DNA of 64,000 bases, from assembly GCF_964213995.1 (NCBI RefSeq), contig NC_135816.1:61442001-61506000 (forward strand), written 5' to 3'. Shown piece after piece: positions 144 through 57,948 of the stretch. The stretch is from Mustelus asterias (Eukaryota). The position numbers and the translations under genes are program-made. The notes below the pieces were generated by a model that was not told the origin of the DNA, did not search any database, and was given only the letters and a program-made list of their open reading frames with translations. How positions within the stretch are numbered: the stretch's first letter is position 1; every line of letters starts with the position of its first letter.

Positions 144-2353
144 ATCTGGAGCAGAGGAGGGAAGGTGGCAGCTTTTGTTGCAGCGGATTGCAGAATTGTA
201 GCGCCCTGCCCCTTATATGTATTGGCCACTGTTGGTATTACATTGTGGGGCGTATATGAGCGATCGATTTGGCAATCAGGAGTGAGAACACTGCCCACTA
301 AATTACAATCAGGAGTGAGAACACGGGCCAGTAAATTATAGTAAGAAGTCTCACAACACCAGGTTAAAGTCCAACAGGTTTATTTGGTAGCAAAACCACT
401 AGCGTTCGGAGTGCTGCTCCTTCGTCAGGTAAGTGGGAGTTCTGTTCACATCCAAGATAGATCAGGATGCAGACCAGCTGCAAAACTCTGCCAAGCAGAT
501 GAGACAAAGGAACTATGCCATCGGCATGCACGCCAAGAACAGGAAACTTGAGAAACTCGGCATCACCACCAGCAGCAACCAAGCCTCCCCCGGTACCACA
601 GTAGAAAACATTGGCACTGCAGTGAAGTCCATTGTCAACTTGTCGGACTACACACTTCAACCAGATGAAATCGAAGTTCTCAGCCGAGGGCTCAATTTCT
701 GCCCCACCACCAAAATAGACCCCATCAGTCACGCAGCAGACACAGGGGAATTCATCAGGCGAATGAAGCTGCGGGAGTTCTTCCACAAATGCCAAGAGGC
801 CAACAGCGAACGCAATGAGACAGTCAATGAACCGGAACAGCCGACAGAGACATCCGCAGTGCAGCAACCGAAGAGGAAAGAGTCAAATTGGACTCCTCCG
901 GAAGGCCGCTGCCCTCGACTTGACATGTATGCCCAAGCCGTCAGGAGGTGCGTCAACACCAAATTCATCAGCCGCACTCACAAGACAGCCCCGAACATCA
1001 CCCAAACACAACGCAATGCCATCCACGCTCTCAAGACCAACCGCAACATTGTCATTAAACCAGCAGACAAAGGAGGGGCCATCGTCATACTGAACAGAAC
1101 GGTTTACTGCAAAGAAGTGTATCGACAACTGAACAACGAGGAACACTACAGACAGTTACCTGCAAATCCGACCAAAGAATACACCCGTCAACTCAACAGA
1201 CTGATCAAGACCTTTGATCGGGACCTTCAGAGCATCCTCCGTGCTCTCATCCCACGTATTCCCCACATTGGAGATCTCTACTGCCTCCCGAAGATACACA
1301 AGGCAAACACACCCGGCCGTCCCATCGTATCGGGCAATGGGATCCTGTGCAAGAACCTCTCCGGCTACGTTGAGGGCATCCTGAAGCCCATTGTGCAAAG
1401 AACCCCAGCTTTTGTCGCGACACTATAGACTTCCTACAGAAACTCAGCACACATGGAGCAGTTGAACCAGGAGCACTCCTCGTCACAATGGATGCCTCGG
1501 CACTCTACACCAGCATCCCCCACGACAATGGCATTGTGGCAACTGCCTCAGTACTCAACGCCGACAACTGCCAGTCTCCAGATGCAATTTTACAACTCAT
1601 CCGCTTCATCCTGGACCACAATGTCTTCACCTTCAACAACCAGTTCTTCATCCAGACACATGGAACAGCCACGGAGACCAAATTCACACCTCAATATGCC
1701 AACATCTTCATGCACAGGTTCAAACAAGACCTCTTCACTGCACAGGACCTTCAACCGATGCTATACACGAGATACATCGATGACATTTTCTTCCTTTGGA
1801 GTCATGGTGAACAATCACTGAAACAACTATATGATGACATCAACAAGTTCCATCCCACCATCAGACTCACCATGGACTACTCTCCGGAATCGGTTGCATG
1901 TTTGGACACATGCATCTCCATCTAGGACGGTCACCTCAGCACTTCACTGTACCGCAAGCCCACGGATAACCTCACGATGCTCCACTTCTCCAGCTTCCAC
2001 CCTAAACACATTAAAGAAGCCATCCCCTACGGACAAGCCCTCCATATACACAGGATCTGCTCAAGTTTTGCAAGCCCAGGCAAGTTGTGGGGATTACAGA
2101 TAGTGTGACATGAACCCAAGATCCCGGTTGAGGCCATCCGTGTATCTGGATGAAGAACTGGTTGTTGAAGGTGAAGACATTGTGGTCCAGGATGAAGCGG
2201 ATGAGTTGTAAAATTGCATCTGGAGACTGGCAGTTGTCAGCGTTGAGTACTGAGGCAGTTGCCGCAATGCTATTGTCATGGGGGATGCTGGTGTAGAGTG
2301 CCGAGGAGGATCGCAACAGACACCTCCAGACGCTGAAAGATACCCTCATAAGA

Positions 2354-5320
2354 GTGGGAAAAGGAGTTGTAGTCCGGAAGTCAGTGTTGAGGGTGGTGAG
2401 GTATTGGGGAAGGTATCAAGGTCAAGGGTGGGTACCGGTAGACAGGAAGATGGGTTGAAGTGTGTCTACTTCAATGCAAGGAGCATCCGGAACAAGGTGG
2501 ATGAACTTGGGGCGTGGATTGCTACTTGGGACTACGATGTTGTGGCCATTACGGAGACGTGGGTAGAACAAGGACAGGAATGGTTGTTGGACGTTCCGGG
2601 GTATAGATGTTTCAGTAAGTGTAGGGAAGCTGGTAAAAGAGGTGGAGGAGTAGCATTGTTAATCAAGGATAGTTTAACGGCTGCGGAAAAGCACTTTGAG
2701 GGGGATATGCACACTGAGGTAATATGGGCTGCAGTTAGAAACAGGAAAGGAGCAGTCACGTTGCTAGGAGTTTACTATAGGCCCCCAAATAGTAATAGAG
2801 ATGTGGAGGAAGAAATTGCTAAGCAGATTATGGATACGTGTGGGGGTCACAGGGTAGTTGTCATGGGGGACTTTAACTTTCCAAATATTGATTGGAACCT
2901 TTGGAGGTCAAATAGTTTGGATGGGGCACTTTTTGTGCAGTGTGTGCAGGAGGGTTTCCTGACACAATATGTGGATAGGCCGACAAGGGGTGAGGCCACA
3001 TTGGATTTGGTACTGGGAAATGAACCGGGCCAAGTGTTAGATTTGGTTGTGGGAGAGAACTTTGGAGATAGTGACCACAATTCGGTGTCTTTTGTTATTG
3101 CAATGGAGAGGGATAGGGCCGGACGGCAGGGCGAGGCTTACAATTGGGGGAGAGGTAATTATGATGCGATTAGGCAAGAATTAGGGGGCATAAGATGGGA
3201 ACAGAAACTGTCAGGGAAAGGCACTGATGAAAAGTGGAACTTTTTCAAGGAACAAATACTGGGTGTCCTTGATAGGTATGTCCCTGTCAGGCAGGGAGGA
3301 AATGGCCGAGTGAGGGAACCGTGGTTCACAAAAGAGGTGGAATGTCTTGTGAAAAGGAAGAGGGAAGCTTATGTAGGGATGAGGAAACAAGGTTCAGATG
3401 GCTCGATTGAGGGTTACAAGTTAGCAAGGAACGAGCTGAAAAAGGGGCTGAGGAGAGCTAGGAGGGGACATGAGAAGTCCTTGGCGGGTCAGATCAAGGA
3501 AAACCCCAAGGCTTTTTACTCTTATGTGAGGAATAAAAGAATGACCAGGGTGAGGTTAGGGCCGGTCAAGGACAGTGGTGGGAACTTGTGTATGGAATCA
3601 GTAGAGATAGGCGAGGTGATGAATGAATACTTTTCTTCAGTGTTCACCAAGGAGAGGGGCCATGTTTTTCAGGAAGAGAAGGTGTTACAGGCTAATAGGC
3701 TGGAGGAAATAGATGTTCGGAGGGAGGATGTCTTGGCAGTTTTGAATAAACTGAAGGTCGATAAGTCCCCTGGGCCTGATGAAATGTATCCTAGGATTCT
3801 TTGGGAGGCGAGGGATGAGATTGCAGAGCCTTTGGCTTTGATCTTTGGGTCCTCGCTGTCCACGGGGATGGTGCCAGAGGACTGGAGAGTGGCAAATGTT
3901 GTTCCTCTGTTTAAGAAAGGGAATAGAAATGACCCTGGTAATTATAGACCGGTTAGTCTGACTTCGGTGGTTGGTAAATTGATGGAAAAGGTCCTTAGGG
4001 ATGGGATTTACGACCATTTAGAAAGATGCGGATTAATCCGGGATAGTCAGCACGGATTTGTGAAGGGCAAATCGTGCCTCACAAATTTGATAGAATTTTT
4101 TGAGGAGGTAACTAGGTGTGTTGATGAAGGTAGGGCAGTTGATGTCATATACATGGATTTTAGTAAGGCGTTTGATAAGGTCCCCCATGGTCGGCTTATG
4201 ATGAAAGTAAGGAGGTGTGGGATAGAGGGAAAGTTGGCCGATTGGATAGGTAACTGGCTGTCTGATCGAAGACAGAGGGTGGTGGTGGATGGAAAATTTT
4301 CAGACTGGAGGCAGGTTGCTAGCGGAGTGCCGCAGGGATCGGTGCTTGGTCCTCTGCTCTTTGTGATTTTTATTAATGACTTAGAGGAGGGGGCTGAAGG
4401 GTGGATCAGTAAATTTGCTGATGACACCAAGATTGGTGGAGTAGTGGATGAGGTGGAGGGCTGTTGTAGGCTGCAAAGAGACATAGATAGGATGCAAAGC
4501 TGGGCTGAAAAATGGCAAATGGAGTTTAACCCTGATAAATGTGAGGTGATTCATTTTGGTAGGACTAATTTAAATGTGGATTACAGGGTCAAAGGTAGGG
4601 TTCTGAAGACTGTGGAGGAACAGAGAGATCTTGGGGTCCATATCCACAGATCTCTAAAGGTTGCCACTCAAGTGGATAGAGCTGTGAAGAAGGCATATAG
4701 TGTGTTAGCTTTTATTAACAGGGGGTTGGAGTTTAAGAGCCGTGGGGTTATGCTGCAACTGTACAGGACCTTGGTGAGACTGCATTTGGAATATTGCGTG
4801 CAGTTCTGGTCACCTCACTATAAGAAGGATGTGGAAGCGCTGGAAAGAGTGCAGAGGAGATTTACCAGGATGCTGCCTGGTTTGGAGTGTCGGTCTTATG
4901 AGGAAAGGTTGAGGGAGCTGGGGCTGTTCTCTCTGGAGCGGAGGAGATTGAGGGGAGACTTAATAGAGGTTTATAAAATGATGAAGGGGATAGATCGAGT
5001 GAACGTTCAAAGAATATTTCCTCGGGTGGATGGAGCTATTACAAGGGGGCATAACTATAGGGTTCATGGTGGGAGATATAGGAAGGATATCAGAGGTAGG
5101 TTCTTCACGCAGAGAGTGGTTGGGGTGTGGAATGGACTGCCTGCAGTGATAGTGGAGTCAGACACTTTAGGAACATTTAAGCGGTTATTGGATAGGCACA
5201 TGGAGCACACCAGGTTGGTAGGGAGTGGGATAGCTTGATCTTGGTTTCAGATGAAGGTCGGCACAACATCGTGGGCCGAAGGGCCTGTTCTGTGCTGTAC
5301 TGTTCTATGTTCTATGTTCT
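2354..5320 (+). mobile_element. CR1-clade LINE (HER1-like), 5'-truncated, inserted in the PLE
   Basis: APE + RT ORF, 3' (ttctatg)n tail, short taaga duplication; PLE sequence resumes seamlessly after 5320. Confidence 0.95.
2455..5238 (+). CDS. CR1 ORF2 (AP endonuclease + reverse transcriptase), uninterrupted
   Basis: LKCVYFNARSIRNK, ITETW, MGDFNFP, SDHN, NYRPVSLTS, DFSKAFDKV, GVPQGSVLGP, KFADD; no stop codons. The ORF-track start at 2278 lies in PLE sequence and is spurious. Confidence 0.92.
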   Translation: MKCVYFNARSIRNKVDELGAWIATWDYDVVAITETWVEQGQEWLLDVPGYRCFSKCREAGKRGGGVALLIKDSLTAAEKHFEGDMHTEVIWAAVRNRKGAVTLLGVYYRPPNSNRDVEEEIAKQIMDTCGGHRVVVMGDFNFPNIDWNLWRSNSLDGALFVQCVQEGFLTQYVDRPTRGEATLDLVLGNEPGQVLDLVVGENFGDSDHNSVSFVIAMERDRAGRQGEAYNWGRGNYDAIRQELGGIRWEQKLSGKGTDEKWNFFKEQILGVLDRYVPVRQGGNGRVREPWFTKEVECLVKRKREAYVGMRKQGSDGSIEGYKLARNELKKGLRRARRGHEKSLAGQIKENPKAFYSYVRNKRMTRVRLGPVKDSGGNLCMESVEIGEVMNEYFSSVFTKERGHVFQEEKVLQANRLEEIDVRREDVLAVLNKLKVDKSPGPDEMYPRILWEARDEIAEPLALIFGSSLSTGMVPEDWRVANVVPLFKKGNRNDPGNYRPVSLTSVVGKLMEKVLRDGIYDHLERCGLIRDSQHGFVKGKSCLTNLIEFFEEVTRCVDEGRAVDVIYMDFSKAFDKVPHGRLMMKVRRCGIEGKLADWIGNWLSDRRQRVVVDGKFSDWRQVASGVPQGSVLGPLLFVIFINDLEEGAEGWISKFADDTKIGGVVDEVEGCCRLQRDIDRMQSWAEKWQMEFNPDKCEVIHFGRTNLNVDYRVKGRVLKTVEEQRDLGVHIHRSLKVATQVDRAVKKAYSVLAFINRGLEFKSRGVMLQLYRTLVRLHLEYCVQFWSPHYKKDVEALERVQRRFTRMLPGLECRSYEERLRELGLFSLERRRLRGDLIEVYKMMKGIDRVNVQRIFPRVDGAITRGHNYRVHGGRYRKDIRGRFFTQRVVGVWNGLPAVIVESDTLGTFKRLLDRHMEHTRLVGSGIA

Positions 5321-14290: not shown

Positions 14291-14851
14291 ATCTGAGTCA
14301 GAGAGCCGTTGGAAGCTCTGAACTTACCTCTTCAGCAACTGGAGCGCCCGAAACAGACCTTTGCCGAGCAGTTCTGTTTCGTGCCGAATCTGGACGCGCG
14401 AACACGATGGTAAAGCGGGAAATGCTGATAAAGTTGGGCGGGCAGTTCATTAATTCAATTTAAATGCATGCAAATGCATTTAAATCGCCGTTGCGCCGTT
14501 TCGGGCACGAATCAGATTGTGGCCATTTTCAGGCCTCGGTATAGTGGGCATCTGTGCGGACACGGGCACGCATCGCGTTAATGGCCTCACGCCCGACTTT
14601 ACCACATTTTCGCGCCCGAAAATGGGCGCAACGCAATGGTAAAATTGGGCCCATTGTCTGTGTATATTAAAGTTACCGCCTCACCTTCCGCATCGTCGCG
14701 GGCGGGGGCGCAATTTAACCGAGTGGATGGAAGCGGGAGTGGGACATCCCGGCTTCATCCCTCGATATTCAACATAGACATCAACAATAACTCTCGAATC
14801 AGTATTGAAATGGGAGAAATATAAGTAATGGATAATATTGAACTGACTTAC

Positions 14852-15199
14852 CCTCCAAAACCAGCAGATTGAAATTCACTTTCTGAGCATTAAAAAGACC
14901 AGAAATCCTTACACAGCAGCAATACCAGCCACTGTCTCCTTCACCGAGATTATCCACAGTGAGAGATACATCCCCTTCCTCTATTTTACCATCAAGGTGG
15001 TATTTTGTGGAGATTGTGTCAGTTACAGTTTTCCCATTTGTTTTAATCAGTGTTTGTGAACAGTCGAATGTAGAGCACCTTCCCCTGCCCCAGCACATTG
15101 CAGTTTCACCATTCTGAGTGACAGAGTATGTGCAGGGCAGCGTGACTGACTGTCCCAGGAATCCTCGCACTTCAGATCCTCTTACAGAGGGGACTGGAC
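14852..15199 (-). CDS. IgV-domain exon of TIM-family (HAVCR1/TIMD4-like) gene A
   Basis: GQSVTLPCTYS..MCWGRGRCSTFDCSQTLIKTNG..KYHLDGKIEEGDVSLTV..DSGWYCC..GLFN; tttcag acceptor, gtaagt donor, 348 nt, phase 1-1. Confidence 0.92.
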
Positions 15200-15678
15200 C
15201 TGAAACAATCCAGATAAAGACAGTAATAATTCAGTGTCCATTGCAGTGACAGAGAAAGTGTGCAGTGAATGAACAGACAGCACAGCACAGAGAATACCAG
15301 TTACCAACCAGCTGCTGTGACGGGAACATAGTGACTCATAAATAAGAACCGGAGTCAGGTATTCAGTAACCGAGCCTCTTCCACCACTCAGTTAGATCGA
15401 AGTTGATCTGTGCTACAATTCACTTTATTCCGTTTAGCTCCATATCCTTCCACATTCCTACCTAATGTTACAGACAAGGGAAAGATGGTTCTCCTTTCTT
15501 CCCATCTGTCAACTAACAGCAACATGATGTGTTTTCAGAGATGTGTGTTAACACTTGAGTGCTGAAACTTCCAAGAACAGACGCAAGTCAAGCTTTCTCA
15601 TGACGAAAATACATATTTAATTCCCAGCACCACCTTTTCCAGTCCAAGTTGTGGTTGAACCCTTGCAGTGAATATATA

Positions 15679-47804: not shown

Positions 47805-48784
47805 GGGCCTGATTTTACCATTTTGGGTCTAAGTGCCGAATCCGAGCGTCAAATAGATCCGCGCCTGGAATCCTCTTTCCAGCGCGCCCATTCGCGTTTT
47901 GCCGGCTCCAGTCCGATCTGCGCTGTGGGCGGGGCTTAGCGCTGGCGGACCGATCGGAGCTCTGAACTGCGCATGCGCAGTTCGAAAAAAATCTGACAGA
48001 GCGTGCCCGGGCTCGAAAGAAAAAAAAAGCAGAAAGCGGAGAGAGCGGCTCTCTGACGGTCATCCTCTGGTCGGGAGGGGGGGGGGGGGGGGGGCGGGGG
48101 GGAGCGGTGGTGGGAGGAGGAGGGGGAGAGGGACCCAGATCATCCTCTGGTCGGCGGGGGCAGGGGGGGATGCAGATCACCCTCTGGTCGGGCGGTGGGA
48201 GGGTGTGGGGGGGTGTGGGACCCAGATCATCCTCTGGTCAGGGGAGGTGTCCGCTGCCAGTCTGCGGCCGATCGGTGGGGAGGGAGGGGGCAGGGGGGTC
48301 CGCCGCCACTCTGCGGGCGATTCCTCCTCCCCACCGGAAGAACGAATCCCTCCTGCCGGAGTGGACGTGCGGCCATGCCATCCCACAAAACCTTCAGGAT
48401 GAAGCGACTCCTCGCTAAGAAGATGAAGCAGAACCAGCCAATTCCACAGTGGATCCGCATGAAAACCACCTACAAGATCAGTACAAGTCCAAGAGGAGAC
48501 ACTGGAGAAGGACCAAGCTGGACCTGTAAAGGGATACACCATCACTGGTACACTACCAGCCACCGATTACTCTTCCCTGCAGTGGCAAGAGAGTGGGAGA
48601 GATGGCTGTGGCTGGTAGTGTACCAGTGATGGTGTATCCCTTTACCAGCCCGCGCCTGAATCGGGTGTCGGTAAAGCCGCAATCTGCTCGGAATTGGATG
48701 CAGATCGCGGTATAGTCCCGACGCCCAACTTTACCGCGATTTCGCGCCCGAAAATGGGCGCAAAGTTGTGGTAAAATCAGGCCC
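47805..48784. mobile_element. Harbinger-like element (family 1) carrying an RPL39 retrocopy
   Basis: TIRs gggcctgattttacca / tggtaaaatcaggccc; absent at paralog ~21820. Confidence 0.85.
48375..48529 (+). pseudogene. rpl39: Processed pseudogene of 60S ribosomal protein L39
   Basis: [31 protein letters not shown]..; after a 1-nt deletion [15 protein letters not shown]; 155 nt, intronless. Confidence 0.93.
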
Positions 48785-56720: not shown

Positions 56721-57534
56721 CATGGAATCAAAACATCAACTCTGTTTCTCTCTACACAGATGCTGCCAGACCTGCTGAGTTTCTCCAGCATTATCCGTTT
56801 TTATTTCAAATAATCCTATTTTATTTCCAAGATGACATTACCTACATGAAGAGTAAAAATACAGTAGATTGAGGAAACTATTTACCCAAATGATAGATCT
56901 CTGTTTAAGAGCCTGTATAATGTATAATGCAAAACGTTTCCACACGGGTGGTTTGAGTCTGGAATGCACTGCCTGGAAGTGTGGTGGAGACAGGTTCAAT
57001 TGAAGCATTCAAGACGGTGTTAGATGATGACTCGAATAGAAGAAGTGCGAAGGGGTACGGGGAAAAGACAGGAACTGCATTGAGCCATGATGCTCATTTG
57101 GCGAACTGGTATAGGCGCAATGGCCCAAACGGCTTCCTTTTGCACCGTAAGAATTTTGTAATTTACTAATTGGAAATTGGAATGTAATTGGACAAAGGGA
57201 ATGTAAATGGTGATGATAAAGGCTGACCGTCTATCAAGAGATCAGAATGTGTAAATGGCAGAACAAAGGTAGAGATTGCCAGGGGACAAACTGAGGTACA
57301 TGGCAGTTGGCTGGGGGGAGAGTTGGTGTTGGGAAGACAAGATTCAAAAGTTGTAAAATCAAAAAAAGAATATGAAGTAATGAAAATGGATGGATAAGAT
57401 GAAAAGAATAAATGAGTAATTACGGTTCCCCCTCCACCGCCATAGTATAAATCATGTCCTATTTTCTTTGTCTTTAGCTCTGATGAAAGGTCATCCAGAC
57501 TCGAAGCGTTGGTTCTATTCTCTCCCCACAGATG

Positions 57535-57752
57535 TTTTTTTTAATACTTTTCCAATTCAATCAAATCAAATCCAATTCAGAGTCTCAACAAGTTGAGACA
57601 TTTCAGATCCAGGCTGACAAGACAGGGCGAGTGACCAAACCACCCTGTCCTGGGCCTGATCTACATGAGCCAAGCTGATTGGAGAAGGGGGAGGTTCCTC
57701 CTCCAAGACTTGAGCTCATTTGCACCTTAGCCAAAAGGCCGAGATGCCGCTT
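57535..57752 (-). mobile_element. U2-snRNA-headed polyA retroposon (SINE-like)
   Basis: Reverse complement of 57726-57744 = TCTCGGCCTTTTGGCTAAG (U2 5' end); non-U2 structured body; A tail; splits a host repeat. Confidence 0.65.
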
Positions 57753-57948
57753 TGTTGTCAGACCTGCTGAGTTTTTCCAGCATTTTCTCTTCTTGTTTCC
57801 AAAGCAGGCTGTGCCAGTAACAGTTGACATGTCATATCTTACCTGCAGTTACCTGATGCAGTAAAGCATCTTGATTTCAGAGTCAAACCATCATACGTAA
57901 AAAAGTTGTTTTGAAGATTAAAGCTGATTATTAAATGGTGGCACTCAC

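Follow-up and report, generated by a model that had tools for sequence, protein, structure and literature searches.

The shark Mustelus asterias carries a young family of U2-headed retroposons that numbers more than 5,000 copies by motif count, and a 5'-truncated copy lies in the window, the whole 64,000-nucleotide stretch of DNA analyzed here. We favor, as the somewhat better bet, a reading in which this copy stems from a family that shares its insertion base with a Keno-type LINE, is likely mobilized by that LINE, and is likely transcribed by the U2 promoter from copies resident in U2 genes. That the family itself is real is nearly certain.

The window copy and its insertion site

The copy occupies window positions 57535..57752 on the minus strand, as do all of its parts and the flanking sequences described below. 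It corresponds to nt ~126-343 of a dimeric U2-headed retroposon of ~343 nt, is 99.1% identical to the full-length copy L014 over 219 nt, and is placed with the youngest copies in our tree. Near its 5' end is a degenerate piece of U2 (57717..57747; U2 nt 4-33 by alignment to the genome's U2 gene, L031), which is predicted to fold into a short stem-loop. This piece contains an exact 19-mer (57726-57744) that an earlier note, made from the letters alone, had taken for the 5' end of U2. The identity to U2 holds, but the match to the genome's U2 gene places the 19-mer at nt 7-25, and around it the similarity widens to nt 4-33 (27/31 columns). Nor is the piece the head of the element, as had been supposed, since it is internal to a truncated copy: 28/29 other top loci have ~125 nt of extra sequence upstream, starting with the U2 head.

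The U2 piece is followed by hairpin 2 (57665..57719), with a stem that is constant across subfamilies and an apical loop that varies, and by the long hairpin 3 (57604..57663), in which the stem is retained, the loop varies and both sides of one pair are altered in 7/47 copies. Hairpin 4 (57582..57599) overlaps an 18-nt motif with 5,259 matches in the genome. A stretch of short GATTT/GAATT repeats comes next (57551..57579; from the sequence and the alignment), and the copy ends in a 3' terminus with a tail of eight A residues (57535..57550). The same 3' tail joins U2 nt 39 directly in six other copies. The three hairpins, GATTT-type repeats and A tail had all been recognized correctly beforehand, with two slips in the hairpin sequences: read on the minus strand, the last loop is TT, and the long hairpin has an outer arm that is one G longer. 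For the 218 nt, the predicted folding energy is -93.3 kcal/mol (z = -7.3), a value equaled by none of 200 shuffles. An Rfam search of the window sequence returned nothing at gathering score, with only sub-threshold matches at E up to 10 and no credible family.

The copy is inserted within another repeat, as had also been noticed. The upstream half of this high-copy host repeat (57753..57802), identified by a second copy at window positions 56761-56810 and by empty sites, ends in the target-site duplication, which is only 2-4 nt long; the downstream half (57478..57534, far end approximate) was identified from the sequence and the empty sites. The empty site was sighted 30 times in the fetched loci, with overlapping loci counted twice.

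Elsewhere in the window, the Ig V-domain exon of a HAVCR1/TIM-like gene lies at 14799-15230 (minus strand) and is 78-80% identical to the HAVCR1-like proteins of the catshark Scyliorhinus and the white shark Carcharodon, in keeping with a shark host. A frameshifted retrocopy at 48400-48560 (plus strand) is, judging from its translation, presumably of ribosomal protein L39-like origin. An open 994-aa endonuclease/RT frame at 2254-5238 (minus strand) is nested in another element; we take the frame to be that of a CR1-like LINE and the surrounding element to be Penelope-like.

A young family of dimeric elements

In the reference copy L014 (343 nt), the first 39 nt match nt 1-39 of the U2 gene in this genome exactly. 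Next come a spacer of ~88 nt with a T/A run at its end and the second U2 piece, and three hairpins, a stretch of short repeats and the A tail complete the element. It is at the T/A run that the window copy is truncated. A genome search with the window copy gave 806 candidates, and all 40 that were scored showed 99-100% identity. In addition to the 5,259 matches to the 3' motif, exact searches found 2,348 matches to a younger body motif and 532 to the motif of one young 5' subfamily, while reversed-pattern controls of all three found none. The junction after the head is constant within subfamilies, many of which coexist. Copy number and a constant U2 junction had been proposed as checks on an elasmobranch U2-headed SINE, and both bear that idea out, since the family has many copies of one fixed structure. 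The single-copy chimera that would have spoken against it is not supported.

Copies were sampled from the first 100 matches listed for the 2,348-match motif, which gave 81 loci in positional order on contig C1 containing 87 copies; since this motif favors young copies, the sample does too. The start lies at nt 1-5 in 43 copies, at nt 6-25 in 24 and further in for 20. Sixty of the 87 differ by at most 1% from another copy, and the median nearest-neighbor distance is 0.7%. Duplications of at least 8 nt (8-23 nt, some lengths containing microhomology with the head) accompany 37/87 copies, compared with a mean of 1.7 and a maximum of 6 in shuffled pairings, and are absent from the other 50. An A precedes the duplication in 43/47 defined events, which is what pairing of the tail at the nick would predict. 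The sample tree took in 151/162 copies. At least 7 of 19 sampled words of the element occur in nine organisms. Four sequencing runs yielded 261, 98, 1,107 and no contigs with the element; the run with 98 is guessed to be RNA, and neither it nor the run with none shows transcription.

Among 20 arrays, the first copy is apparently the younger in 12 and the last in 3, with ties in 5 (p = 0.035), which indicates that new copies tend to enter upstream. This direction of entry suggests how the dimer formed, and fusion of two tandem insertions is its likely origin. The proposal that the first unit is a deleted version of the second was rejected (shuffle test, p = 0.36).

The near-identical SINE copies at L207, L208, L214 and L216 (small contigs C278, C305, C204 and C502) have a common 5' flank and lie beside a LINE ORF1, suggesting that they belong to a larger amplified unit. 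On different contigs, L003 and L010, and likewise L009, L012 and L268, share the same or nearly the same position in a common host repeat; the coincidence reflects either a preferred site or copying of the repeat around it. On the element strand, L084, L225:8905-9247 and the second copy of L018 show clusters of A-to-G changes, which could result from RNA editing of the hairpin before insertion.

A Keno-type LINE at the same U2 site

The U2 genes lie in two arrays on C24. At L061 and C24:44.81-44.94 Mb lies a 16-unit array of 8,035-nt repeats, each comprising one intact U2 gene and a broken Keno-type LINE that is interrupted by a ~350-nt common repeat; a dead LINE is thus amplified together with the U2 gene. 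The LINE encodes an ORF1 with PF23057, PF23058 and PF00098 domains, a PF03372 endonuclease (E 3e-15), a PF00078 RT and a PF13966 zf-RVT domain, and its APE-type endonuclease precedes the RT. This domain set makes the LINE Keno-like and not Utopia. In the available text of PMC4640811, both Keno (Tx1 clade, APE endonuclease) and Utopia (RLE endonuclease) are U2-targeting LINEs that insert at nt 39 of U2. The shark LINE sits at just this site, with U2 resuming from nt 39 behind it in U2 genes, and at L061 it is accompanied by a 20-nt U2 duplication like that of reptile Utopia as described in the same source. It begins with a U2 head of its own, as do full-length copies of the LINE.

The ORF1 at L061:1343-2209 is hit by the two models for the RNA-binding domains of ZCCHC3 (E 4e-28 and 5e-11) and has a CCHC knuckle, in line with a probable derivation of ZCCHC3 from the ORF1 of such a LINE. 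Many copies of the Keno-type LINE are dispersed; its 3' motif has 602 genome matches, and an intact ORF2 was found in 0/9 near-full-length copies fetched. The best homologs are unnamed frog and newt proteins (45-46%) and lancelet proteins (32-35%), with none named Tx1 or Keno among the protein matches.

Two observations concern the U2 loci themselves. L059, L062 and L063 (C24:41.73-41.75 Mb) hold a second U2-headed LINE lineage, ~80% diverged, beside an intact U2 gene without the canonical upstream region. At L096-L099 (C24:43.02-43.05 Mb), 9/58 canonical units have lost the region around the Keno site, and short repeats of the U2 sequence that precedes it stand in its place; these replacements alter the branch-point pairing region of U2 and are possibly repair scars that also remove the target.

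All 30 junctions between an A tail and U2 nt 39 in the genome were fetched: LINE ends account for 22 and SINE ends for 6, and the remaining 2 are neither. Fifteen of the LINE junctions are units of the 16-unit array (one displayed, the rest by position), and seven are other LINE ends. Six of 30 LINE 3' ends abut a SINE, an arrangement to which, at a SINE density of ~1 per 700 kb, we assign a chance of well below 1 in 100 by our own estimate. At L015, L094, L142 and L224, SINE and LINE pieces alternate with one identical duplication repeated between them, and 8 of the 99 gaps between listed SINE matches are shorter than 700 nt, against 0.05 expected. At 4/81 loci the SINE is nested antisense in the head of another copy, 8-12 nt past nt 39, and one LINE copy (L264) is inserted likewise. 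U2 nt 39 follows only 1/81 sampled loci. Taking these data together, we consider it very probable that the Keno-type LINE is the partner of the SINE.

Sequence similarity between the partners is slight. The SINE and LINE 3' ends gave p = 0.007 and the spacer and LINE 5' UTR a weak similarity at p = 0.04, each as one of five shuffle tests; blastn of the SINE body against the LINE ends found no match, and a profile of LINE ends gave no support when compared with SINE ends (best score -0.2). An origin of the SINE body from the LINE 5' UTR was rejected (p = 0.40), and an A tail separates the two at L234, where they abut. The suggestion in the earlier note of a derivative of a U2-targeting LINE therefore stands as far as the partner and shared target are concerned, but a simple deletion derivative is no more than a candidate reading, the body homology being borderline.

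Copies behind U2 upstream DNA

The genome has 58 canonical U2 upstream ends, and a search allowing up to 2 mismatches found no further canonical U2 upstream regions. At one of the 58 (C24:43,060,512), U2 nt 1-39 lead on into a SINE, behind which lie a remnant of U2 and a truncated LINE. The private junction of this fusion has a single genome match, and the fusion was accordingly rejected as a master, having no daughters. A second, variant U2 gene (85-90% identity, with the U-rich Sm-site-like run kept) was observed at L226-L229 (C21:28.04-28.08 Mb). The variant repeat is a tandem unit of ~450 nt with a spacer of ~260 nt, and its array on C21 is heavily invaded by the LINE and the SINE and partly inverted. 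Of 16 variant-U2 upstream ends, seven lead into a SINE, five into the LINE and four into an intact gene, which brings the SINE copies fused through their heads to U2 upstream DNA to eight.

One of the seven variant fusions lies in the C21 array and six lie in five dispersed blocks, four of which are enclosed by 10-18-nt duplications. These duplication-flanked blocks with their U2-array flanks show that copies of the SINE resident in U2 genes had been transcribed and inserted anew. Blocks that contain the upstream spacer must have begun upstream of U2 +1, pointing to read-through of the array and not to initiation at +1. The fused blocks belong to several subfamilies; two dispersed blocks have additional pieces of U2 in front of them that end at nt 48 and 52, and at L161 U2 sequence is present on both sides within a duplication.

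In the tree, the eight U2-site copies fall at eight separate places. Their scattered positions fit repeated landing and single out no master, and a single origin was rejected (8 changes for 8 rows). A clade of five with support 97/97 unites two U2-site copies with three dispersed ones. The 5' sequence of the 532-match subfamily was found in no U2-fused copy, nor was its master found behind the 74 U2 upstream ends.

The canonical and variant upstream types share 10/12 nt near -50, where a PSE would be expected. Within the element, T4, T6 and T4 runs occur at nt 15, 119 and 142. The element has no exact B box, three one-mismatch B-box-like strings, and one A-box-like string in the second U2 piece. 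The T6 run and the lack of an exact B box argue against Pol III. The copies resident in U2 genes are probably, with a modest lead over other sources, the main source of new copies through the U2 promoter.

Predicted folding of the element RNA

Folds were compared in 47/162 copies, chosen to be at least 2.5% different. Across 35 stem pairs, 98.4% of cells stay paired, while the loops vary. Pairs altered on both sides number 2/35, no more than in shuffles (381/500), and a covariation score beats the shuffles (0/500), though it is inflated by relatedness; we regard the covariation as weak. When 83 near-full-length copies were folded, all but one (82/83) showed pairing between U2 nt 25-32 and the spacer at P > 0.8, compared with means of 0.04-0.39 and maxima up to 1.0 for shuffled spacers. 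The branch-point hexamer pairs at P > 0.8 in 31/83 and at P > 0.5 in 59/83; for the largest young subfamily the value is only 0.31. The head is thus predicted to be masked in its upstream part, and masking of the hexamer is predicted not to be universal.

Discussion

The observations can be assembled into a cycle. Insertion junctions in U2 lie at nt 38/39, where the LINE endonuclease would nick the gene and the A tail of the SINE would prime reverse transcription. A cDNA that ends in U2 nt 1-39 could then anneal to the upstream half of the cut gene and join it seamlessly, so that the SINE would replace the 3' part of U2, the arrangement seen in the eight fusions. From there, the external snRNA promoter may start RNA at U2 +1 and thereby rebuild the head in each daughter; about half of the copies do start at nt 1-5, and blocks flanked by U2-array sequence have been retrotransposed. 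Specificity is relaxed, with most daughters landing elsewhere, as the window copy did, and earlier sites or the heads of other copies are often re-used. The predicted fold of the RNA pairs its spacer with U2 nt 25-32. A bolder extension, to which we give slightly less than even odds, is that the element is a promoter-less homing SINE. Its head would combine the Keno endonuclease site with a homology arm behind the U2 promoter, U2 arrays would breed it, and its first hairpin would hide U2 from the spliceosome; it would have arisen in sharks independently of SINEU and would still be moving.

The most serious competitor to transcription from U2-resident copies keeps the same family and LINE partner, and we put it at about one chance in four. 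Here, the masters would be dispersed copies read through from host or LINE promoters, the head would be kept or refreshed by template switching, and the copies in U2 would mostly be dead ends. Such masters would account for the commonest young subfamily having none behind the 74 U2 upstream ends found, for the promoter-fused variant without daughters, and for the many copies that immediately follow a LINE 3' end. For SINEU, the available text of Kojima (PMC4494074) proposes that the template switches to U2 snRNA, and the additional pieces of U2 before two blocks, with their ends at nt 48 and 52, could be products of such a switch. However, the ends of these pieces coincide with the points at which insertions in genomic U2 arrays make U2 resume or stop (nt 46-58), the displayed flanks of the youngest copies share no common non-U2 5' extension, the head junction is constant within subfamilies, and blocks with U2-array flanks were themselves retrotransposed.

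Other explanations fare worse. An internal promoter gained by the element, either of Pol III type (A-box-like, in the U2 piece) or of LINE-type Pol II in the spacer, would make any full-length copy a source. It would suit the coexistence of many subfamilies, the full-length LINE copies with the same kind of U2 head, and the A-box-like string in the second U2 piece with its three one-mismatch B-box-like companions. The T4, T6 and T4 runs would nevertheless stop Pol III, an exact B box is absent, and the spacer resembles the LINE 5' UTR weakly (one of five tests, p = 0.04), and we consider this promoter improbable. We hold it slightly less probable still that an abundant CR1-, L2- or RTE-type LINE mobilizes the SINE and that the Keno association reflects shared permissive sites only. 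The window is dominated by ORFs that we take to be CR1-like and Penelope-like, SINE and Keno have no clear common tail, and none of the nine Keno copies has an intact ORF2; yet permissive sites sit poorly with a base-exact common junction at U2 nt 39 at six loci, with the alternating SINE/LINE arrays that share one duplication, and with the nesting, by four of 81 SINE loci and the LINE copy L264 alike, just past nt 39 of other heads. The idea, already raised in the earlier note, of retrocopies of a functional variant snRNA gene, or of one-off U2 chimeras, draws on the strong, conserved fold. It is largely refuted by the thousands of copies, the subfamily series, the fixed dimer, the A tail and the lack of an Rfam family, and the variant U2 gene of this genome has nothing but the U2 pieces in common with the element; we give it hardly any weight.

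As far as the available text of Kojima 2015 (PMC4494074) goes, the shark element resembles the crocodilian SINEU-1, -2 and -3 in being shorter than 500 nt and non-coding with a U2-derived 5' end and a poly(A) tail, in the repeated addition of U2 pieces and the internal T runs, in tandem insertions that sandwich a duplication, and in a partner LINE that is itself U2-headed and has no clear tail in common with the SINE. It differs from SINEU as described there in its specific target (U2 nt 38/39 instead of Mariner-N4_AMi), in its partner (a U2-targeting Keno-type LINE instead of Tx1-Mar), and in its copies that sit behind U2 upstream DNA, an arrangement that the text does not report for SINEU. 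The shark element is also very young, and its host is a shark and not a crocodilian. The features by which SINEU is defined recur in it: a U2 head, multiple copies of fixed structure, a length below 500 nt, poly(A), target-site alterations of the non-LTR type, oligo-T stretches without a recognizable internal Pol III promoter, and a target preference shared with a Keno-type LINE.

With Keno and Utopia (PMC4640811, available text) the element has in common the 3' junction at U2 nt 39 and tandem insertion; unlike these LINEs, it is non-coding, only 343 nt long and located mostly outside U2. It is not a classical Pol III SINE, having a U2 head, a T6 run and no tRNA, 5S or 7SL Rfam match in the window. 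R2-derived SIDEs are promoter-less and land in a transcribed multicopy RNA gene by means of a site-specific LINE enzyme. The shark element would resemble them in its promoter-less reliance on a transcribed multicopy RNA gene and on a site-specific LINE enzyme, whereas its host is a Pol II snRNA gene, thousands of its copies lie off target, and the 5' piece of the host is kept as a head and not cut by a ribozyme, no ribozyme family matching in Rfam. Co-transcription of R2 in 28S rDNA is cited in the available text of PMC4494074. SacSINE1 and the CmiSINEs are, like our element, short retroposons of cartilaginous fishes, and are described in the available text of PMC5499810 as shark tRNA-headed SINEs with Pol III boxes and L2 tails; the portion of its main text available contains neither 'snRNA' nor 'Tx1'. 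In what is available of PMC4758252, PMC5499810 and PMC5381603, SINEU is reported only for crocodilians or is absent. Our literature search, with most subscription papers, Repbase and Dfam outside its scope, found no shark U2-headed SINE.

In the available text of Kojima 2015 (PMC4494074), the transcription of SINEU is named as an open question, snRNA promoters lying outside the RNA. Copies that stand in register behind U2 upstream DNA, together with daughters that carry U2-array flanks, make this question testable. The shark family would extend snRNA-headed SINEs from crocodilians to sharks and would link them to a U2-targeting LINE itself, and it would reveal a parasite load on spliceosomal genes. 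Furthermore, its young, near-identical copies are candidate insertion markers for shark populations and phylogeny.
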